Under the pieces are notes generated by a model. It did not search any database and was not told where the DNA came from. It saw nothing but the letters and a program-made list of their open reading frames with translations. Shown here piece after piece: positions 7,531 through 50,889 of a stretch of 64,000 bases of DNA (its first letter is position 1; the number at the start of each line of letters is the position of its first letter). The stretch is from positions 3,988 to 67,987 of the forward strand of contig JAKISS010000003.1 of NCBI GenBank assembly GCA_021648485.1, given 5' to 3'. The position numbers were made by a program, and so were the translations under genes. This stretch comes from Gammaproteobacteria bacterium. GTDB lineage: Bacteria; Pseudomonadota; Gammaproteobacteria; SZUA-152.

Positions 7531-8403
7531 TTAACGTGAATTTCTGTGTCGTAAGAAGCTGGCAAATCGGGGAATTCCTTTGTTTGTCAGACCAAAATAT
7601 TTGTAGGTAATCGTTGAGCCGATTGCCGGTGGGTTTTTCCTTTCAGCATCAGAAAATCCGGAGCCAATTTTAAAACGTTTTCCACTCGCGGCTTCGACGA
7701 GCATTGAGCCCAGCATTCCCGTATATTTTCCTTTCCCCGGAATGTGTTTGATGACGATAGCTTCAGCATCAAAGTATTTTTTTACTTTTAATAGGTTCTC
7801 AGATCTTCCTTTTTTATACAGTGAAAAACCCGAGTGCAACATTAAACCTTCACCACCTTGCTGGACGATATTGTCGAGCTTGCTCATTAATGCTTCATTT
7901 GTTGAAACCTTTGTCTGATCAACAGCTTGTATGTGCGGCACGTTAATATCGCGGACTATTTTTTTAAGTTGTTTTAGCCGACGATCAAAAATTTGTAGGC
8001 TGTCAGGTAAATCAAAAATCATAAATTTAATATTTTTCCACTCAGAGTCATCAGGTGATTGTCGTCTCACCATGCCAGGTAGCTGCTCAAACTTTCCTCT
8101 GCCCATCCAAAGTTCGCCATCCAATACTGTCTTGGGCAGGGGCAATAAAAACCATTCAGGGGCATGAAAAATATTGCCTTGACGTGAAATGAAGTTTTTA
8201 CCGTTCCAGAAAGCCCGTACGCCATCCAGTTTTTCACTGACCCAATAGTTTTCTAACATAATTCCGGGCTGATAAATATTGGCGAGCAGCAAGGCTGGTG
8301 CTTGTTGGGTATTGCCAGGTGGAATGGATGATGCAGAAGCAGGTGGAAAAAGAAATGCCGACGAGAGCAATAAGCATTGGAATAAAACAAAGCAGGGTTT
8401 CAT
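7531..8403 (-). CDS. Periplasmic ATP-dependent DNA ligase (Lig E type) with N-terminal signal peptide
   Basis: Signal peptide MKPCFVLFQCLLLSSAFLFPPASA. Adenylation motif KLDGVRAF (KxDG). Conserved ligase blocks LEG.V..GGEGLMLH and FKIGSGFSD. The ~270 aa mature size matches the minimal Lig E/LigA-type ATP ligases of Neisseria and Haemophilus. Confidence 0.8.
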   Translation of the reverse strand: MKPCFVLFQCLLLSSAFLFPPASASSIPPGNTQQAPALLLANIYQPGIMLENYWVSEKLDGVRAFWNGKNFISRQGNIFHAPEWFLLPLPKTVLDGELWMGRGKFEQLPGMVRRQSPDDSEWKNIKFMIFDLPDSLQIFDRRLKQLKKIVRDINVPHIQAVDQTKVSTNEALMSKLDNIVQQGGEGLMLHSGFSLYKKGRSENLLKVKKYFDAEAIVIKHIPGKGKYTGMLGSMLVEAASGKRFKIGSGFSDAERKNPPAIGSTITYKYFGLTNKGIPRFASFLRHRNSR

Positions 8404-22363: not shown

Positions 22364-22981
22364 CTAATCCTCCCAGCGAACATAAATCAGCGCTGTGCGG
22401 GCATGGCTTTTTGCCCACACATCCACGCCAGCCAGCTTGTTGATCCAGCGAGCTTCGATTTCTTTAGCGCTTTCATCAATCACATGCTCAAGAAAAACCT
22501 TGAACAATAAGTATTTATTGTCCCAACCCACTTTTTTAGCCGTATTGCTCATGATTTCAAACTGGTTGGTTTTTGCATGTGTACGTTTTACGGTTTCGTA
22601 AACGTCCTTGACATAGGCCTGGGTGATGCGCACGTCTTCTACTGTGCCAACCTGAGTAAGGTGTCCGCCAACAAACACATCAAAGTCGTAAGCCAGAATA
22701 GCATCGAATATTTTCAGGTATTCATGAAAATTATGCGTTAAATCAAAATCCATGAACGGTACGTATCCCGGTGTCAATGAATCAATGACCATGAGGAATT
22801 TCCGTTGCGGCAAATAGAAAAATACATCATTTTCGGTGGAGTGGTAATTGCCGTGCTGGTTTAGTTGAATGGTTTCCGAACCCATTTTTACAACGTGATT
22901 TCCAGAGTAGGTTTCTGTAGGAGTGATGCGTCGAGGATCATTTTTTTCGGCTAAACGTTGCGCCACATGTTTATTGGCCAA
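22364..22981 (-). CDS. Hypothetical protein, possibly a fragment of a metallo-hydrolase-like protein; 5' end abuts the transposase left end
   Basis: 205 aa with weak His-rich motifs (HGNYHSTEND, GGHLT). The start codon is 10 bp from the IS-associated repeat at 22992. Confidence 0.35.
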   Translation of the reverse strand: MANKHVAQRLAEKNDPRRITPTETYSGNHVVKMGSETIQLNQHGNYHSTENDVFFYLPQRKFLMVIDSLTPGYVPFMDFDLTHNFHEYLKIFDAILAYDFDVFVGGHLTQVGTVEDVRITQAYVKDVYETVKRTHAKTNQFEIMSNTAKKVGWDNKYLLFKVFLEHVIDESAKEIEARWINKLAGVDVWAKSHARTALIYVRWED

Positions 22982-22991
22982 TACCTGTTAA

Positions 22992-23066
22992 GGGTCAGTT
23001 CTCGTATTGTAGTCTCTTCTCAAATGGTCTAGACATCAACTTATGGCAAGACCCCTACGTATTGAA
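22992..23066 (+). repeat. Left-end-like 75 bp sequence, copy 1; includes the start and first 8 codons of the Y1 transposase gene
   Basis: GGGTCAGTTCTCGTATTGTAGTCTCTTCTCAAATGGTCTAGACATCAACTTATGGCAAGACCCCTACGTATTGAA, about 90% identical to 25703..25776. Confidence 0.7.
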
Positions 23067-23879
23067 TTTTCCGGTGCCCTTTATCATGTGACCTCACGCG
23101 GTGACCGGCGAGAGGCCATCTTCGAAGATGATGAAGATCGTCAGATATTTCTGTACACCCTGGCGGAGGTTGTTGAACGATTCAATTGGCTTTGTCATGC
23201 TTACTGCCTGATGACAAATCACTACCATCTGCTTGTGGAAACGCCGGATGGAAATCTGTCCAAAGGCATGCGACATCTCAATGGCGTCTACACCCAGGCA
23301 ACAAACCGGCGTCACTCACGAAGCGGTCACCTGTTTCAGGGGCGCTTCAAAGGGATTATTGTCGATAAGGACAGTTATTTGCTGGAGCTGACGCGCTATG
23401 TCGTGCTGAATCCAGTTCGCGCTGGCATAGTACGGCAGCCAGGGAAATGGCCATGGAGCAGCTATTGCGCCATGACAGGTAAAACGCCGACACCGAGCTG
23501 GCTAGCCACAGATGGAATTCTGGCGCAATTTGCCAAACGCCGTACTACCGCCCAAAAGCGGTACAGCGAATTTGTGGCAGAGGGAATCAAGAAAGAATCC
23601 ATCTGGAGTGAATTACAGCAGCAGATTTATCTCGGTGATGAGAAATTTATTAAACGAGTGCAACGGAAAGCGAATGTACAAGGCGATGAGTCAAGTGTGC
23701 CGCGAGCACAGCGCAGAGCGCCTGCTCCTACGCTTGAGAAGATTGCCGCCAAACACCGTGACCGGAATAAAGCTATTTCTGTTGCGTATGCCACCGGGGC
23801 GTACAGCTACCGCGAGATTGCAGAATATTATGGTTTGCATCTTGCCACTGTGGGCAGGATTGTACGAGAAAAAATGTAA
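23043..23879 (+). CDS. Long-form IS200/IS605-like Y1 (HuH) transposase / RAYT-related protein with C-terminal extension
   Basis: The HuH motif (NHYHLLV), the catalytic Tyr region, and the pattern YHVTSRG.....IF.DD.DR..FL of the Y1_Tnp (PF01797) family. The ~120 aa C-terminal extension has a helix-turn-helix-like tail. Confidence 0.75.
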   Translation: MARPLRIEFSGALYHVTSRGDRREAIFEDDEDRQIFLYTLAEVVERFNWLCHAYCLMTNHYHLLVETPDGNLSKGMRHLNGVYTQATNRRHSRSGHLFQGRFKGIIVDKDSYLLELTRYVVLNPVRAGIVRQPGKWPWSSYCAMTGKTPTPSWLATDGILAQFAKRRTTAQKRYSEFVAEGIKKESIWSELQQQIYLGDEKFIKRVQRKANVQGDESSVPRAQRRAPAPTLEKIAAKHRDRNKAISVAYATGAYSYREIAEYYGLHLATVGRIVREKM

Positions 23880-23931
23880 CAATGCGAGAGCTGACCCTTT
23901 GGTGCTTTGGTTTTCGCTTTGGCTCTGTTGA

Positions 23932-24420
23932 TCAGACAGGTTTAGCCGTGGTGAGATCATAGCCCTGCCGCACTGGAGAACCAGCAGTATTAGTTTTATC
24001 GAATTGGGTATAGCTTATATTTAATTTAGAGTATGCCAAAGTGACTTCTTCTCTTGGTGGACCGCCATCACCCCCATCGGCAAATATTTTAAAACCGCTA
24101 ATCAAGCAGTCAAAAAGCTCGTATGTCATAAATTCCTGTAACGTATTACTATGAGTACGTACAAAATGTAGTATGACTTTTTTCCCTTCTGATGTTGAAA
24201 CAGAATCTTTAAAAAAGCCAAGTGTTGCAACATCAAACCCTTTCGTTAACACAATTTTCTCGAATTCCGGATGTGCCGATTCACGGTTTGCCATATGGCC
24301 CGGTATCATGCTTATTTTACGTTTAACATTAAAATTAAGCGATGATATATCAATTTGATTTTCATATCCCGCTGCAGTTACATTCCCGGGTATACCTTCA
24401 AATTCACAATATATGGACAT
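23932..24420 (-). CDS. hcp: Type VI secretion system tube protein Hcp (TssD), orphan copy
   Basis: About 160 aa. It aligns block-wise with the Hcp1 family: IDISSLNFNVKR~IDVLAWSWGMSQ, FEKIVLTKGFDVATLGFFKDSVSTSEGKKVIL~FTKYIDKSTPNLMMACSSGKHYPQAKLTI, QEFMTYELFDCLISGF~VEYLIITLKEVLVSSV, EEVTLAYSKLNISY~ENVTLNFAQVQVDY. No other T6SS genes are present in the window. Confidence 0.75.
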   Translation of the reverse strand: MSIYCEFEGIPGNVTAAGYENQIDISSLNFNVKRKISMIPGHMANRESAHPEFEKIVLTKGFDVATLGFFKDSVSTSEGKKVILHFVRTHSNTLQEFMTYELFDCLISGFKIFADGGDGGPPREEVTLAYSKLNISYTQFDKTNTAGSPVRQGYDLTTAKPV

Positions 24421-24581
24421 TTTTTTCACTCGTGAGAATTAGATTAAATTTGTCTTTTCCAATATTGCATTTTACTATAATTCCAACTTGCATTACTATC
24501 TCGTATGAAGATTAAGTAATATATGATCATTGTCGAATTTACCCGATTACAACCATTGTTCTAGCAGATTGTTAAGGTGTT

Positions 24582-25028
24582 ATGATTACTATTGGATCAA
24601 TTTCAAGGCTTGAAGCGACGAATATCTACCCTTTTTTAGCCAAAAAATATCGTGGCCGAAGAAAGGCTATAAAAGAATTTACCCATCGAGATCCGGATTT
24701 TGTATTTTGGATCTATCCCGATGGACGTCTTTTTGATGCTCGTGATGCACATAAAAAAAACATCCCAAAAGGATATGGTCATATTGTAAATGATGAACCT
24801 AATTATGGTGGTTTCTTACGCGGGCGTGTTGCGACGCTAGGCGATCATCAGTTAATTGTTGTGTATTGCTTAGAGGAGACTCTGTCGTCAAATCAAGAAA
24901 AAATTGAACAGTTCTTAACAGGTGTAAGTGAGATTCCTGTACCGATAATGGATGATGCACTTGTTATAAGTGACAATGCGGATATTTTTGGTACTATCAC
25001 GGATATACATGATAGCATCAATGATTAA
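24582..25028 (+). CDS. Hypothetical protein (AT-rich islet ORF A)
   Basis: 148 aa, low GC, no recognisable domain. It is divergent from hcp across a 150 bp AT-rich promoter region. Confidence 0.4.
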   Translation: MITIGSISRLEATNIYPFLAKKYRGRRKAIKEFTHRDPDFVFWIYPDGRLFDARDAHKKNIPKGYGHIVNDEPNYGGFLRGRVATLGDHQLIVVYCLEETLSSNQEKIEQFLTGVSEIPVPIMDDALVISDNADIFGTITDIHDSIND

Positions 25029-25152
25029 CTACGAAAAAGTATTGGTAGAATAGCTAAAAACCGGATCCGATTTGGTCTTTCTTTTTGGTGGTCAACAATA
25101 TCTCTCTACCTGACCAGCAACCAAAAAAGTTAGAGAGTAGGGAAGGAAAAAT

Positions 25153-25503
25153 ATGGATCCATTTAATATATTATATACGCAGGATTCAATTGACCCAAGT
25201 TTTCAGTCGGATAAAAGTATTCCATTTCAGTGGCGTGGCCGGCCAATCACGGAAGCCATTGACGAAGCAAAAAAATTGGGCCGATTACCTAGAGGACTTC
25301 AATTAAACGCCGTACGTGGCGGAGATGGGTGCTGGATTACTCTAAACAACCGAACTCTGTATGTTGCTCAACAAGCTAAATTAGCAAATGTAAGTCCCGT
25401 CGATGCTGGTACAAAAGGGTCCAATCAAATGACAAAATTACTGCGCAATGCGAGGCTTGCTGGTCCAGTTGAAACGATTACGGTGAGGAAAAAGAAAAAA
25501 TAG
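25153..25503 (+). CDS. Hypothetical protein (AT-rich islet ORF B); weak resemblance to a ParB/Srx-fold domain
   Basis: 116 aa. ..ITEAIDEAKKLGRLPRGLQLNAVRGGDGCWITLNNRTLYVAQQAKLANV loosely follows the ParB N-terminal pattern E.L.ELA.SI...G.LQPI.VR....Y.I.AGERR.RAAKLAGL. This is unverified pattern matching. Confidence 0.4.
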   Translation: MDPFNILYTQDSIDPSFQSDKSIPFQWRGRPITEAIDEAKKLGRLPRGLQLNAVRGGDGCWITLNNRTLYVAQQAKLANVSPVDAGTKGSNQMTKLLRNARLAGPVETITVRKKKK

Positions 25504-25702: not shown

Positions 25703-25776
25703 GGGTCAGTTCTCGTATTGTAGTCTTTTCTCAAATGGTCTAAGCTCAACTTATGGCAAGCCTCCTACGTATTGAA
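25703..25776 (+). repeat. Left-end-like 75 bp sequence, copy 2 (truncated duplicate of the Y1 transposase 5' end)
   Basis: About 90% identical to 22992..23066, including ATGGCAAG(C)C(T)CCTACGTATTGAA (MAS/RL/PLRIE). The reading frame collapses after 8 codons. Confidence 0.7.
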
Positions 25777-25822: not shown

Positions 25823-26266
25823 ATGAGCAAGTATATCCATAAAAGTCACAATGTTACGGTATTAATCTATCATCTGGTTTTTCCAGCTAAGTATAGGCGA
25901 GCCGTTTTTGATGATAGTGTGGATAGGGTAGTAAAAGAAATTTGTTTGGAAATTGAGAAGCGGTATGAAATAAAATTTCTGGGGATTGGAACTGACAACG
26001 ATCATGTCCATTTTTTAGTGCAATCGGTACCAACGTATAGTGTGAGGAAGCTGGTAACGATGATAAAGAGTCTTACCGTTAGAGAGGTATTTAAGGAATG
26101 CCCGCAGGTCAAAAAGAAGTTGTGGGGAGGTGAGTTTTGGAGCGATGGATATTTTGCCAGTACAGTGGGAAGCATGGCAACGAAGAAATGATTGGGAAGT
26201 ATGTGAAGACTCAAGGTAATGAATACCAAAAATTACATTCGAATCATCCGCTAGCGCTTTTTTAGA
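25823..26266 (+). pseudogene. tnpA: IS200-type Y1 transposase tnpA with a -1 frameshift near codon 116
   Basis: The HuH motif DHVHFLV and the catalytic SDGYFASTVG are present. The intact frame stops at 26191 (…GSMATKK*). Shifting by one nucleotide in the GGG run at about 26167 restores the canonical C-terminus GKHGNEEMIGKYVKTQGNEYQKLHSNHPLALF*. Confidence 0.7.
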
Positions 26267-42745: not shown

Positions 42746-45034
42746 ATGACAGAAACAACCGAACTAAACTACGAAGGCGTAGAACAACAACCCCTCAGCA
42801 CCTTTACTGAGAACGCCTACCTCAATTACTCCATGTACGTGATCATGGATCGTGCCTTGCCACATATCGGCGATGGTCTGAAGCCCGTGCAGCGACGCAT
42901 CGTCTACGCCATGTCCGAGCTGGGCCTCAAAGCGGGTGCCAAGTACAAAAAATCCGCACGTACTGTGGGTGATGTCTTAGGTAAATTCCATCCTCATGGT
43001 GATTCGGCCTGTTACGAAGCAATGGTCTTGATGGCGCAGCCGTTTTCCTACCGTTATCCACTGGTAGACGGGCAGGGTAACTGGGGTGCGCCGGATGATC
43101 CCAAGTCTTTTGCGGCAATGCGTTATACCGAGTCACGGCTGGCAAAATATTCAGAATTGCTGCTCAGTGAAATTGGCTTGGGTACGGTGGACTGGACACC
43201 GAATTTTGATGCGACACTGGATGAACCTTCAGTGTTGCCGGCGCGGGTACCGAATTTGTTGTTGAACGGTACCACTGGCATTGCCGTGGGTATGGCCACG
43301 GATATCCCGCCACACAATCTACGTGAGGTAGTGAACGCCTGTGTGCATTTGCTGGATACACCGAAGGCAACACTGGCAGATATTTGCGAGTATGTGCAGG
43401 GGCCGGATTACCCCACCGATGCGGAGATCATTACACCACGTAATGAGTTGGTCGCTATGTATGAGAAGGGCGGCGGCTCGGTGCGTATGCGTGCGGTATG
43501 GGAAAAGGAAGACAATGCAGTGGTGGTGACAGCACTGCCGCATCAGGTGTCCGGTAATAAAGTGCTGGAGCAAATTGCTGCGCAAATGAATGCGAAGAAG
43601 TTACCCATGGTGGAAGATTTACGTGATGAATCCGATCATGAAAACCCCACTCGTCTGGTGATTGTGCCGCGCTCCAATCGCATCGATTTGAATGAGTTGA
43701 TGGCGCATCTTTTTGCAACGACAGATCTCGAAAGAACCTATCGTGTAAATATGAACATCATTGGCCTTGATGGCAGGCCGCAGGTGAAAGATCTGCGCAC
43801 TTTGCTCAAGGAATGGCTGATGTTCCGTACCGACACGGTGCGCCGACGGTTGGAATATCGTCTGGAAAAAGTGAAGCGCCGGTTGCATTTACTGGATGGG
43901 TTGCTGATTGCGTTTCTCAATCTTGATGAAGTGATTCACATTGTTCGCACCGAGGATGAACCCAAATCGGTATTGATGAAACGCTTCAAGCTCACTGACG
44001 AGCAGGCGGATTATATTCTTGACACCAAGCTGCGTCAGTTGGCACGTCTGGAAGAAATGAAAATCCGTGCCGAGCAGGAAGAGCTGGCAGCAGAGCGTGA
44101 CAAACTGGAAAAAACGCTGGGTTCAAAAGCGCGCTTGAAAACGCTGATACGTAAGGAGTTGATTGCTGATGCGGAAGAATATGGTGACGAGCGACGCTCT
44201 CCCATTGTCGAGCGTGGTGCAGCTCAAGCGCTGGATGAAACTGCATTGATCAGTGCTGAGCCGGTCACGGTTGTATTGTCGGAGAAGGGCTGGATTAGAG
44301 CAGCCAAAGGCCATGATGTAGATGCTGCGGGCCTTAATTACAAAGCCAGTGATGATTTTAAAGCGGCGGCTTGTGGCCGCAGTAATCAGCAAGTGGTGTT
44401 TTTGGATGCCAGTGGGCGTTCGTATTCCATTGCTGCACATACGTTGCCATCAGCGCGTGGGCAGGGTGAACCGCTCACGGGGCGTGTGACTCCGCCCGAT
44501 GCCGCCAGTTTTGTTGATGTACTTGCGGGTAAAGGCAGTGATTTGTATTTGCTGGCCAGTGATGCGGGGTATGGTTTTGTGACCCGGCTGGAAAATATGT
44601 ATGCCAAAAATAAATCAGGCAAGGCTTTGCTGAAATTGCCCAAGGGTGCGCGAGTGCTGCGGGCCTGTGCTGTCAGTGATGTTGTCAGTGACCGCATTGT
44701 AGCGGTAACCACTGAGGGACGCATGCTGGTTATTTCATTGCAAGAGTTACCGGAAATGGCCAGAGGTAAAGGCAATAAGATTATCGGCATTCCCCCTGCG
44801 CGAGTGGCGAATCGCGAAGAGTATGTGGTTGGCGTTGCCGTTGTTTCTGTGGGTGACAGCTTGACAATTTATTCGGGAAAACGTCATTTGACCCTTAAAC
44901 CCAGGGATATAGAGCACTATGAGGGTGAGCGTGGCCGCCGTGGCTCCAAGCTGCCGCGTGGTTTTCAGCGAGTGGACAATATTTCTGCCAGTGGTTCAGT
45001 AAATGCCGCAACCGGGGTGGTTGAAAAAGAGTAA
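42746..45034 (+). CDS. parC: DNA topoisomerase IV subunit A
   Basis: [25 protein letters not shown]…, the active-site Tyr region (AAMRYTE), and 762 aa. Confidence 0.95.
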
Positions 45035-46887
45035 TGCCGATTGATTTGCTGCAATGGTGGGATCGCTTGCCTTATGTGGGCACAAAGAGCGAAGTGATTG
45101 CGCCGCGTGTTATTCCACTAAAGCTGGATGTGCCGATATTGCGTGTGCGTAACCGGCGCAAGCAGGAAAAATTGCAGCCCCCTCCCGATAGCTGGAAAGA
45201 CCTGAACAAGTATCCAACGGAATTGCTGCGCAAAATCGATGGTTATTTACAGCGTGTTAATACAGAGAAAATGCGTAATAGCAAACGTATGGCCTGGGTT
45301 GAGCATGCCTTGCAGTATGCCTGCCCGGCCATACGAAAAATTTATTCTGAGTACTACAAATCCGAAGCATTGCCGGAATCGCATGACAGACGTGAAGGAT
45401 TGATGGCAGCAATTAATGTGTGCAGCCAATTGGCGGTGGGTTATAAACGTCAACTGAATGAAGATTTTGCCTTGCCCGATGCCCGCTATGCCCGAGTGCG
45501 TCCCCGGGTGCGCCATCATGCTGTGCGTATTTTGGAATTACTGCGCATGGAGCAACGTTTACGTGCCATGCGTTATCAAAAATTATCAGAAAAGAGCTGG
45601 CAGGATTGTCACCAGATATTTTTTGCCCTTTCCCAGTGCGAAGACATTGATGAAAAACGGTTGTCGTTAAATTGCTTGCAGGTGTTGCTGGACAGTTCAG
45701 CCAATGAAAGTACACGCCGGATGCCGATAATGACATCATTAAACCTGGTTTATCTTTCTATCCAGTTTAATGGTTTGTTTAACATTAGCGCCTTGTTATG
45801 CCAAAAACTACATGTGGTGGATGCACAAATTGCCAATGTTATCGGCTCGATTACCATTATTCCCGATCATGGTAAAAAGCTGGGGCGCGGTAAGTTGTTG
45901 ATTTACCATGGGCAGGATTGTCCGCCGTATTTTAAACGTCAGGATGAAATACAGCGGAAAAAACAGCTTGCATGGTTGAAAGCCCGTGGTGAATTTTGCA
46001 CGGGTGAGGCACTTTCATCGGAATATAAACTGAGGGCTGTTATCGTTGATGTCTCGCCGCTGGATGCAATGTTGATGAAAGAACATCAGCGATTGCTGGC
46101 GCGATTTGAGTCACAGGATTTCATTGAGGGCGTGAAAGAAAAAGGGGCAAAAAATAAATATAATAGCGTTGTTGATCAGGATGACCTGGCCAATTTGTTG
46201 ACCATAGATGCCATGTGTGATGGTTTGCAATTGAAACAGCGTAAGGAGGAAAGAGAATATATTCTTGGCCGGAAAATATTGTATGTGTACAACGGGTTTA
46301 TGTCAGTTTACAAATTGCTGGTGGATATGGCGACAGAAAAAAACAACGAAAACTCCAGCCTGGCAAGTGATAATGATTTACGTGATGCATTGGCAGGTCG
46401 TTCGGCATTGATTGCTGCGGATTTGCAGGATAATGAGTTTGGTCAGTGGTTTGTGGTCGATAAAAGTGAGGGCGGGGTTCACATTAAAACACGAGACAGT
46501 GAATTTACTACCGCCTTGTTTATTGGCCAGGTTGTGGCATTTGCTTATTCACGTGAAGCACTTGCCAGACCGGCGCTGGGTTATGTGGTGCGCCTGCGTC
46601 GTAATATCAGTAAAGAAATCGAAGTGACTATTCGTATTTTATCAAAAACCGTTGTTGCTACCACTGTGCAAAATGATTTTTTAACTCAAAATGATATGGC
46701 TTTGCCTGCTATCGTGCTTGAGCGTGATGACATGACCAGGAGACGTTTAATGTTACACCATAGCCATCGATTGTCATCGGGTACCCTGGTAAAGATTGAA
46801 CTGGATCAGCAACAAACGGAAATTATTTCCGAGATGCTGAAAATTCAGCGGGAGTTTGTGGTTTATTCGCTGCTGGAAAAATCGTAA
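45034..46887 (+). CDS. Large conserved hypothetical protein (paralog P1 of 49030..50889)
   Basis: 617 aa. The start ATG overlaps the parC stop (TAATG), implying translational coupling. It shares blocks with the 619 aa protein (…A[VI]GYK…; …HRA[IV]R[IY]L…L…Y…H…W…H…). It may belong to the DUF1631-type family that neighbours fimX in Pseudomonas; that attribution is from recollection and is unverified. Confidence 0.6.
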   Translation: MPIDLLQWWDRLPYVGTKSEVIAPRVIPLKLDVPILRVRNRRKQEKLQPPPDSWKDLNKYPTELLRKIDGYLQRVNTEKMRNSKRMAWVEHALQYACPAIRKIYSEYYKSEALPESHDRREGLMAAINVCSQLAVGYKRQLNEDFALPDARYARVRPRVRHHAVRILELLRMEQRLRAMRYQKLSEKSWQDCHQIFFALSQCEDIDEKRLSLNCLQVLLDSSANESTRRMPIMTSLNLVYLSIQFNGLFNISALLCQKLHVVDAQIANVIGSITIIPDHGKKLGRGKLLIYHGQDCPPYFKRQDEIQRKKQLAWLKARGEFCTGEALSSEYKLRAVIVDVSPLDAMLMKEHQRLLARFESQDFIEGVKEKGAKNKYNSVVDQDDLANLLTIDAMCDGLQLKQRKEEREYILGRKILYVYNGFMSVYKLLVDMATEKNNENSSLASDNDLRDALAGRSALIAADLQDNEFGQWFVVDKSEGGVHIKTRDSEFTTALFIGQVVAFAYSREALARPALGYVVRLRRNISKEIEVTIRILSKTVVATTVQNDFLTQNDMALPAIVLERDDMTRRRLMLHHSHRLSSGTLVKIELDQQQTEIISEMLKIQREFVVYSLLEKS

Positions 46888-49029: not shown

Positions 49030-50889
49030 TTAAATCAGTGTCCATACGGCATCGAATTCGTCATCTGTCTCAGCATCGGCCGATGGTTTTGTTTTTTTCT
49101 GCACATTTTCAAGTACGGTAAATTCAAACTGAGAGAATACACCAGTGGATTCCAGTTGTTTAGTGAGTTTGATGCGTGTGCGACGTCCGTGGACGTTGGC
49201 AATCAGTTGGTCATCGGTTTGGTGCCAAGCATGTGTGATCAGTGTGGCAGGTTGGTCAATGCTGGACAATCGGGGTAATACCAAACTGCGCTGATATTTT
49301 TCCGCAGTGTCATCTTTGGTAATGGCAGAAAGCGCAATAGCATCAGCGCAGGGTGCCAGTTTCTGGATGCCAAGCTCAAGCCCGTTTTTCCAGTTTTTTA
49401 TGCGGCGGATAATGCCAATGCTGAGTTGTGTGCCGCTTGCGGCAATATTATCGCGGATACCCACCAGTTCGCCGACCTGGACTTTTTGTGAATCTTTTCC
49501 ATAAACCAGATAACCTAGCAGGCAGTAACCACCGGCACTTTCGTTGACGCCTTTGCAGGGCAACGGAGTGTGTGCGTATAAAGCGCTTTTGTCCTGAGTT
49601 TCGTCACCACGGGTTTCTGAAGTATGCTCGGGGTTGTTCGCCCGGTAGGTGAAATCCGGATCCCAGATATCCGGTGTATGGTCATCCAGATTGCTGATAC
49701 CAAACACGGGGCTGCTGGTGTAGTGGGCAGGTTCATCCAGCACAAAGTCCTCATCATCGTCCGTTGTTGAAACAAGGTTGCCCGTCTGTAGGGCATCTGT
49801 CGCTGTGGGGCAACTTGCTGTTGGGTCTTTCAACAGAGGGCGAATGACTTCATCGATGTAATGATGGGTTGCGCTCAGACCGAGAGTGATGGCAATTTCG
49901 TTGCTTTTTGAGGTGCGGGGGAAAGTACGGTGCGATTTTCCGCTCCAGGTGACGATCAGGCGTTTTTGTACATCGGGTGGAATTTTTGGGGCAGCATCAC
50001 CACCGGAGAGCATGGAGTTACTCATGGCCTGCACCAGTTCGCTGGTATCCACGGTACGACAGAATGCGGGGTTGACGGTGCCATCGTCACGGAAATAACC
50101 GGGAGCGGCATCGCTGTTCATATTGATGTTAAAGGCGTAGCTGTCATCCAGGATTTCGCCGTAAGGGTGGATGTGGGCATTGGCTCCCCAGGTTTCCAGT
50201 GTCCGATACACAGCCTCAGTGACATGTTGGCGCAAGCGGTAGGGGCCGACCAGGGCCAGCAGGAGGATTTGTTTGTAAATGTCAGCGATATTACTGTCCA
50301 ACACGGTCTCGGGGGCAACATGATCCTTGATCAACGTGACGTGCAACTGGCGGTTCTCTGCATACAAATAAAGACGATGCACTTGCAGCCAGACATTTTC
50401 CGGGTGCTGGATATAAATCTGATACGAGCACAGCAGCACATTACTGAGATAACGAATGGCACGATGCAGGCAAATGCCCAGGGTTTTGTTGTTCAGGCGT
50501 GAAAAAGTCTTGCTAAGTTTGCTTTGAATAATGGCCTTATAGCCAATGGCCATTTCCGAGTTCAGTTGAATAGCCAGCTCGGCAATTTTTTGATTTTTGG
50601 GAGAAAGAGGCAGATTTTGATTAATGTAGTGTGTTTTTAACACCTCTGTAATCTGGTAAACCGGTTCGCGCAGAAGCTCCATGGATTTATAACGGTCATG
50701 TGCAGACATGCTCAGGCGATTCATCTCACACAGTGTTGTATAAATAAGGCGTGCGCTTTCGCCGATGTTGGCCATCGGTAGCGAAGTGACCCAGGCCTCA
50801 ACCTGTTTTGGACGAGGGTCGAACGAACCCGAAGTGGGTTTGTTTTGTTCCGGGATGTTCAGTAATCCTTCAGACATGCTGTTCGCCAC
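49030..50889 (-). CDS. Large conserved hypothetical protein (paralog P2 of 45034..46887)
   Basis: 619 aa, co-oriented directly upstream of the fimX-like gene. The sequence blocks shared with P1 are listed under that feature. Confidence 0.6.
   Translation of the reverse strand: MANSMSEGLLNIPEQNKPTSGSFDPRPKQVEAWVTSLPMANIGESARLIYTTLCEMNRLSMSAHDRYKSMELLREPVYQITEVLKTHYINQNLPLSPKNQKIAELAIQLNSEMAIGYKAIIQSKLSKTFSRLNNKTLGICLHRAIRYLSNVLLCSYQIYIQHPENVWLQVHRLYLYAENRQLHVTLIKDHVAPETVLDSNIADIYKQILLLALVGPYRLRQHVTEAVYRTLETWGANAHIHPYGEILDDSYAFNINMNSDAAPGYFRDDGTVNPAFCRTVDTSELVQAMSNSMLSGGDAAPKIPPDVQKRLIVTWSGKSHRTFPRTSKSNEIAITLGLSATHHYIDEVIRPLLKDPTASCPTATDALQTGNLVSTTDDDEDFVLDEPAHYTSSPVFGISNLDDHTPDIWDPDFTYRANNPEHTSETRGDETQDKSALYAHTPLPCKGVNESAGGYCLLGYLVYGKDSQKVQVGELVGIRDNIAASGTQLSIGIIRRIKNWKNGLELGIQKLAPCADAIALSAITKDDTAEKYQRSLVLPRLSSIDQPATLITHAWHQTDDQLIANVHGRRTRIKLTKQLESTGVFSQFEFTVLENVQKKTKPSADAETDDEFDAVWTLI

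Follow-up and report, generated by a model that had tools for sequence, protein, structure and literature searches.

Tox-ParBL1, a ParB-related toxin family predicted in 2012 (Zhang, de Souza, Anantharaman, Iyer, Aravind; PMC3482391), is characterized by a conserved N-terminal serine and an [NT][RT][RT] motif with an arginine corresponding to DGHHR; its scaffolds are of the RHS, HINT, type VI secretion system (T6SS) and other delivery types, and nuclease activity was proposed for it (Zhang et al., PMC3482391). A second ParB-fold toxin, ToxB, is a classical ParB-fold CdiA tip with ATPase activity that is blocked by a small immunity protein; its hydrolysis needs the GxxR arginine and its toxicity depends on both nucleotide binding and hydrolysis (bioRxiv 10.64898/2026.05.05.722872). 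Orphan Rhs tip/immunity pairs can also act as modules resembling toxin-antitoxin (TA) systems (PMC7043789). Here we analyze a stretch of 64,000 nucleotides (nt) from a gammaproteobacterial genome (GCA_021648485.1, contig JAKISS010000003.1, positions 3,988 to 67,987; hereafter the window), in which an hcp gene is divergently paired with two open reading frames (ORFs), A (148 aa) and B (116 aa), both present exactly as an earlier, sequence-only reading of this DNA had listed them. We propose, with a probability of about 0.55 for the statement as a whole, that hcp, ORF A and ORF B constitute an Hcp-carried T6SS toxin module in which ORF B is a ParBL1-like toxin and ORF A a non-canonical protector.

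The toxin assignment of ORF B comes from the architectures of its homologs. Among six word-indexed homologs one alone (P0004) is longer at the N-terminus, where ...NAHNYFVGGDGVLVHN represents the last part of a pretoxin HINT (PT-HINT) domain; P0004 is a PT-HINT C-terminus joined to an ORF B domain. An exhaustive HMMER search with a five-sequence ORF B profile against 1.84 billion representative proteins recovered 94 matches to the domain, of which 56 have E<=1e-10. In almost every strong match the domain ends 14 or fewer residues from the C-terminus of proteins of up to 4473 aa, and among ten long matches PT-HINT lies immediately upstream in eight and RHS repeats are found in six. The domain starts exactly after the end of the HINT domain (VLVHN followed by VDPxDI...) or of the RHS core (DPxGL followed by IDPxDI...), and the initial Met-Asp-Pro of ORF B coincides with this junction position in its relatives, the closer of which are 45-59% identical to it. 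The junction-matched start, together with the C-terminal location of the homologs, thus leads to the proposal that ORF B is a polymorphic-toxin warhead turned into a free-standing gene, and we regard its identity as a ParB-fold polymorphic-toxin domain as very likely. The domain family is also linked to the T6SS independently of the hcp-associated copies described below: downstream of vgrG, of a chaperone gene of the DcrB/Eag type and of a complete rhs gene, E. coli PapRG-06-5 has an orphan Rhs fragment that contains a B-type tip with 48% identity to ORF B. The locus encoding P0004 (L001 1-4402; GCA_026993485.1 JALWSU010000120.1) is an array of three orphan PT-HINT C-terminal cassettes, in which a nearly identical HINT end of ~37 aa is joined to three different tips, two with deaminase-like CxE/HAE...PCxxC motifs and one being the ORF B-type domain; candidate immunity genes come after every tip, and the tip of the ORF B type has two paralogous copies behind it.

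The AlphaFold model of ORF B (predicted local distance difference test, pLDDT, of 96) matches only ParB/sulfiredoxin-fold proteins, a likeness that had been suspected by eye. The structural matches, with their scores, are Atu1540 (6.6), Arabidopsis sulfiredoxin (6.2), KorB (6.1), SbnI (5.8), PadC (5.5), the free serine kinase SerK (5.1), human sulfiredoxin (4.8), pNOB8 ParB (4.6) and Spo0J (4.1). The conserved pattern comprises F-[ST]-Q near the N-terminus, L-P-x-G-L in mid-domain and [TA]-L-N-N-R-T-L-x-V-A at a strand-to-helix turn, where the N-N-R-T motif maps to strand 61-63 and helix 66-74 of the model. Across 30 aligned domains R67 is present in all 30, N66 and T68 each in 29, a threonine or serine at position 9 in 27 and S12 in 18, and N65 is nearly invariant across the ORF B relatives. 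In the model R67 would occupy the position of the GxxR arginine of the ParB/sulfiredoxin enzymes. The earlier remark that ORF B lacks the arginines of the GERRxR box is thus correct in so far as only one of them is kept, and misses that the residue predicted to stand at that position, R67, is invariant.

A classical ParB domain was considered for ORF B and rejected, there being a single arginine of the DGHHR/GERRxR box and no match to PF02195 (ParBc) at E<=1 in ORF B or any of the 30 relatives. No Pfam model covers the toxin domain in these relatives or in 10 distant ones that were also scanned. More generally, neither ORF A nor ORF B has a match in Pfam, NCBIfam, PADLOC or PHROGs, housekeeping families included, and PDB sequence and profile searches returned nothing for either. 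The sequence-only reading had judged both proteins to be beyond naming: this holds for ORF A, and is superseded for ORF B, which fits Tox-ParBL1 (PMC3482391). The ParBL1-like assignment follows the published motifs and architecture, rather than sequence similarity to the type protein NGK_2271.

ORF B does not travel alone. The arrangement hcp(-)/ORF A(+)/ORF B(+) is found in five sequence-diverged copies in four chromosomal settings, the window included, so that the recurrence of the A-B pair with hcp, for which the earlier reading had suggested looking, is borne out. In one setting the cassette lies between a histidine kinase/LytTR pair and argH (L003-L006 and L091; L092 has it at the same chromosomal site as L003 in a related organism, with flanking proteins 79-89% identical), in another it has different flanking genes (L007), and in a third it lies beside TIR, SLATT and QueC-type genes (L112). 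The site next to argH is a stable one within a single lineage (L003/L091/L092), and the neighboring LytTR system may regulate the cassette there. Between cassettes, Hcp shows amino acid identities of 53-74%, ORF A of 68-79% and ORF B of 61-82%, with the proportion of synonymous differences (pS) saturated, and ORF A precedes ORF B by 56-124 nt on the same strand in all five. When these five are compared, the proportion of nonsynonymous differences (pN) is 0.12-0.25 against a pS of 0.68-0.92, mostly saturated, and dN/dS, the corresponding ratio of rates, is ~0.06-0.11 where computable. All three genes are under purifying selection; with homologs for both and pN far below pS, ORF A and ORF B are confirmed as genuine genes, which removes the possibility that they are non-coding. 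In L112 (JGI Ga0077776_1174517, 7655-8002) an in-frame TAG interrupts ORF B where Gly43 would be (AKEM*ELPGG), whereas hcp and ORF A are intact. The genes next to this copy are two ThsB-type TIR genes, a SLATT gene, QueC and an Ogg-like gene.

The hcp product in the window is a full-length Hcp (Pfam T6SS_HCP, E=2.6e-26). Since no T6SS family was detected among the neighboring and largest ORFs scanned in the window, its description as an orphan is correct as far as the window shows. ORF B (116 aa, 12.9 kDa) carries no PAAR, VgrG or RHS domain for delivery, and its size would allow it to enter the Hcp lumen; most likely, therefore, it would be loaded into the Hcp encoded with it. The conserved linkage, the size of the toxin and the existence of known Hcp-dependent effectors make it reasonably likely that the cassette works through Hcp and the T6SS. 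The following mechanism is therefore envisaged for a mobile three-gene auxiliary T6SS cargo module. Its payload would be the basic 13-kDa ORF B protein, which in other bacteria is the cleavable C-terminal tip of RHS/PT-HINT toxins. Hcp would serve as both carrier and chaperone of this payload, which would be fired into neighboring cells and there most likely use its N-N-R-T pocket, and R67 in it, to bind nucleotides and to carry out phosphoryl transfer or hydrolysis. This chemistry is predicted from the fold and the analogy to ToxB; the toxin may alternatively be a nuclease, as Zhang et al. proposed for the family. ORF A would most likely protect the producer in place of the usual immunity protein.

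What that usual protein is can be seen at the loci of the fused toxins. Directly downstream of RHS/HINT-fused B-type toxins there is always a small gene. The products form linked clusters of ~100-115 aa and ~160-185 aa that share an N-terminal G-x-[FY]-L-L-Q motif, have no Pfam match, and are detected by profiles built from them in ~18 loci, that of E. coli included (c2 profile, E=1.8e-24). Examples are encoded at L089 2090-2572, L093 1216-1713, L100 5715-6059, L104 1516-1821 and L114 12571-12879. They presumably constitute one loose, apparently unnamed family that is the usual immunity to this toxin. Six-frame translations of the whole window and of every cassette locus contain no match to this family at E<=1, and the cassettes have no room for a further gene after ORF B. 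Thus, the two arrangements show a complementary distribution: the fused toxin is followed by the usual downstream immunity gene, while the free-standing toxin is accompanied by hcp and an upstream ORF A.

It is by elimination, then, that ORF A comes to be read as the protective partner: the usual immunity is absent and no gene space remains after ORF B. The reading is fitted by the acidic isoelectric point (pI) of ORF A (5.5) against the basic one of ORF B (10.1), by the same-strand spacing of 56-124 nt with no predicted terminator between the two, and by L112, where ORF B has a stop and ORF A is intact. We give this role even odds, or a shade better. Of the Hcp effector/immunity module suggested by the sequence-only reading, the effector half thus gains a recognizable toxin domain and a linkage to hcp in four settings, and the immunity half stands on this argument by exclusion.

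ORF A belongs to an unnamed family of more than 837 homologs, with members in Myxococcota, Planctomycetota, Verrucomicrobiota, Bacteroidota, Armatimonadota, Acidobacteriota, Actinomycetota, Gammaproteobacteria and a Leptospiraceae metagenome-assembled genome (MAG). A sample of 24 sequences has 45 invariant columns, including H35, H57, D71, R80, R82, C96, D131, N132 and D134; no fold match was obtained, and no catalytic fold or activity could be assigned. Among 185,579 species genomes 107 relatives were confirmed, a lower bound because the scan used just two peptide patterns; even so, the family is patchy as well as conserved. No match on plasmids or phages was found by tblastn. The cassette copies are each other's closest relatives (68-79%) and are 55-68% identical to stand-alone members; being barely more diverged from the latter, they probably still do whatever the family does.

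Several ORF A homologs occur in contexts of their own. In the Flavobacteriia (Aquimarina, Tenacibaculum; L011, L013, L014, L027, L029) they are found within long arrays of small same-strand genes, with one match each to DUF2750 (Imm16 of Zhang et al.), DUF1877, DUF6714 and DUF6210 and many genes without a family; these arrays resemble heterogeneous polyimmunity islands. In a Capsulimonas sp. MAG (L028 7254-8216) the homolog continues in frame into a GNAT acetyltransferase domain at the C-terminus (Pfam Acetyltransf_1, E=7e-15), a fusion that is real at the ORF level, and a second Capsulimonas MAG (L056) has a separate 126-aa gene after ORF A. Other apparent fusions, namely those in high-GC loci and one with an S8 peptidase (L057), are probably artefacts of ORF calling and were set aside, as was that of P0083, which involves merely a 72-residue fragment of an adenylyltransferase.

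A number of observations weigh against a protective role. Unlike what is typical of immunity proteins, the ORF A family keeps 55-80% identity over at least eight phyla, and ORF A is the most conserved of the three cassette genes. It lies upstream of the toxin, not downstream, and is unrelated to the usual immunity family as judged by its hidden Markov model (no match) and by hhalign (probability <1%). In 80 other genomes with ORF A there is no recurrent neighbor within 8 kb and neither a cassette-type hcp nor a ParBL1-type toxin nearby, so that the association with hcp, upheld for the pair, does not extend to ORF A by itself; neighbors of the stand-alone members include murE, priA and coaX-like genes.

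Some of these observations also speak for the strongest alternative, to which we assign perhaps one chance in four, namely that ORF B is an Hcp-linked toxin and ORF A a conserved enzyme or accessory factor (e.g. a loading adaptor, a toxin co-factor, or a stress or detoxification enzyme), self-protection being provided elsewhere or unneeded. The family has many members under strong constraint, and in the 80 genomes these occur independently of toxins and hcp; the invariant polar residues of the family resemble an active site rather than a fast-evolving binding surface, and the GNAT fusion of the Capsulimonas MAG points the same way. Moreover, T6SS adaptors of the DUF4123, DUF1795 and DUF2169 families usually sit between hcp and the effector, which is the place of ORF A. 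However, a T6SS-specific adaptor is argued against by the presence of the family in Actinomycetota and other groups without a T6SS, and ORF A matches no known adaptor family. The alternative also requires that a toxin whose relatives always have adjacent immunity was left unprotected in at least four independent insertions.

In a variant that we consider unlikely, ORF A would be a small enzyme or a mimic of the toxin target that undoes or blocks the ParBL1 chemistry, rather than a stoichiometric binder, and so give allele-independent protection. This would explain the conservation across phyla, the usual stand-alone state beside housekeeping genes and the apparently unmatched fold, and also the recruitment of ORF A in place of the usual immunity once the toxin became free-standing Hcp cargo. 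Tri1 is said to be such an enzymatic, broadly protective immunity protein, directed against the ADP-ribosyltransferase Tre1. By pure analogy, immunity of this type would explain a conserved protector that is widespread independently of the toxin gene.

That ORF A and ORF B are instead an intracellular TA or abortive-infection module, serving islet stabilization or phage defense with hcp as a passenger, had been raised by the earlier reading as an alternative; it now appears improbable. Protector-first gene order is typical of type II TA systems, the islet is mobile, the L112 cassette lies beside TIR, SLATT and QueC-type genes, and the TA-like behavior that orphan Rhs tip/immunity pairs can show offers a precedent (PMC7043789). 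Against this, hcp is always present and is kept under purifying selection in every cassette, ORF B is related to the tips of RHS/HINT toxins that are exported, and ORF A homologs elsewhere have no partner toxin; nor does either ORF have a PADLOC, Pfam or NCBIfam match, or ORF A a match to a DNA-binding domain in Pfam. The weakest reading, on which both proteins are secreted as cargo against eukaryotes or other foreign cells, with no need of immunity, can draw on ParBL1-type domains reported in eukaryotes too (Zhang et al. 2012, PMC3482391), on the toxicity of a classical ParB-fold toxin in plant cells and on both proteins being small enough for Hcp, but is very improbable, since those relatives that share 45-59% identity with ORF B are invariably followed by an immunity gene, an association that implies antibacterial activity, and the ORF A family occurs in bacteria without a T6SS and beside housekeeping genes.

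The layout of the locus is given in Table 1. The mechanically predicted hcp ORF extends to a GTG at 24429 (23932-24429, -); because the five related Hcps of the cassettes all begin with MSIYCEF, the true start is taken to be the ATG at 24420, and the spacer between hcp and ORF A is therefore 161 nt. Plausible Shine-Dalgarno sequences precede ORF A (AAGGTG) and ORF B (GGAAGGA). The spacer had earlier been described as a shared AT-rich promoter region. Its AT-richness is evident; as to the promoter, a consensus scan found no sigma-70-like site in the spacer and no excess over the whole region (6 observed, 7.9 expected from shuffled sequence), and a promoter function is suggested by the divergent gene arrangement alone.

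Table 1. The cassette and the elements bracketing it (feature, position in the window, strand, description)
Left copy of 75-nt direct repeat	22992..23066	+	5' end of the 278-aa Y1-transposase-like gene
IS200-like / REP-associated-type (RAYT-like) Y1 transposase gene	23043..23879	+	278 aa; flanks cassette
hcp	23932..24420	-	162 aa from conserved ATG; T6SS tube/carrier protein; Pfam T6SS_HCP
AT-rich divergent intergenic spacer, hcp/ORF A	24421..24581		GC ~0.33
ORF A	24582..25028	+	148 aa, ATG, acidic pI 5.5; candidate non-canonical immunity/protective protein
ORF B	25153..25503	+	116 aa, ATG, pI 10.1, 12.9 kDa; free-standing Tox-ParBL1-like domain
Right copy of 75-nt direct repeat	25703..25776	+	just upstream of the IS200 TnpA gene
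IS200-family TnpA	25823..26191	+	122 aa; flanks cassette on other side

The module in this genome appears to be a horizontally acquired, AT-rich insert between two IS200-like elements. The GC content of the cassette is 38.2% versus 48.6% in the remainder of the window, and the minimum of 0.33 (24200-24800) falls at the ORF A/ORF B pair, where the sequence-only reading had placed it. The cassette is bracketed by two Y1-transposase genes, one whose 278-aa product matches Pfam Y1_Tnp at E=6e-12 and has a weak C-terminal helix-turn-helix, and the other encoding the 122-aa TnpA, which matches the same model at E=5.1e-34 over profile positions 2-109 of 121. Just upstream of each is a copy of the 75-nt direct repeat (repeat families D1, D2), the copies being 94-98% identical and spaced 2711 nt apart, and the 278-aa transposase gene lies between the arms of a 21-nt inverted repeat (22990-23010 / 23879-23899). 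The GC contrast and the transposase bracket sharing the 75-nt repeat identify the cassette as an acquired islet, which may have been mobilized as a composite unit by the two elements; no tRNA gene that could have been the insertion site lies near it. An ORF of 205 aa that starts with TTG and matches no Pfam family (22364-22981, -) ends 10 nt before the left islet repeat and may be a gene truncated by the insertion. Elsewhere in the window, ORFs of 617 aa (45034-46887, +) and 619 aa (49030-50889, -), neither with a Pfam match at E<=1e-4, flank a GGDEF-EAL gene.

In the searchable literature Tox-ParBL1 is confined to the 2012 paper, with no ParBL1-type toxin studied experimentally, and among ParB/sulfiredoxin-fold toxins a single example, of the classical type, has been characterized (in a 2026 preprint). 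Against this background the cassette offers a minimal clonable set, made up of a toxin of 116 aa whose one invariant arginine can be mutated, an Hcp that goes with it and a lone candidate protector. Should ORF A neutralize the toxin, it would provide the first function for hundreds of strongly conserved proteins without a known fold, and one would have to ask why a protector should be retained so widely in the absence of its toxin; should it not, the toxin would be one without visible immunity, which would itself need explaining.

The module can be placed relative to several described types of system. Small T6SS effectors that depend on Hcp, e.g. Tse1-3 with Hcp1 of Pseudomonas aeruginosa, reportedly form one such type. 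ORF B resembles them in lacking PAAR, VgrG and RHS parts, in being encoded beside hcp and in having a size compatible with the Hcp lumen; unlike in those systems, the hcp here is an orphan, and the putative protector is encoded between hcp and the effector gene instead of behind the latter. The orphan Rhs-CT/immunity modules of E. coli, located downstream of vgrG-Eag-rhs, also carry a B-type tip, as in PapRG-06-5; in contrast to the cassette, the E. coli tip still has its junction with the Rhs core, the usual immunity protein, there of 102 aa, is encoded after it, and the locus has neither ORF A nor a dedicated hcp. With ToxB the module shares the use of a ParB-fold domain as a warhead, which in ToxB is antibacterial and accompanied by an adjacent small immunity gene. 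The two differ in that ToxB is found with PF02195 and delivered by contact-dependent inhibition (a type V secretion system), whereas ORF B does not match PF02195, keeps one arginine of the motif and is linked to hcp, RHS and HINT; their candidate immunity proteins are unrelated. The closest agreement is with Tox-ParBL1. ORF B has the ParB/sulfiredoxin fold, and with its relatives shares the N-terminal serine or threonine that classical ParB lacks and the [NT][RT][RT] motif with its conserved arginine, while its homologs have the C-terminal position on RHS/HINT toxins. ORF B departs from that family in being free-standing and starting exactly at the domain boundary, in a motif that reads N-N-R-T where the published family mostly has two arginines, and in that Imm-SUKH and Imm44, listed for ParBL1, were not found beside its relatives. 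What is new here is thus a free-standing, Hcp-linked toxin of the ParBL1 type with a non-canonical partner, an addition to these systems rather than a new category.

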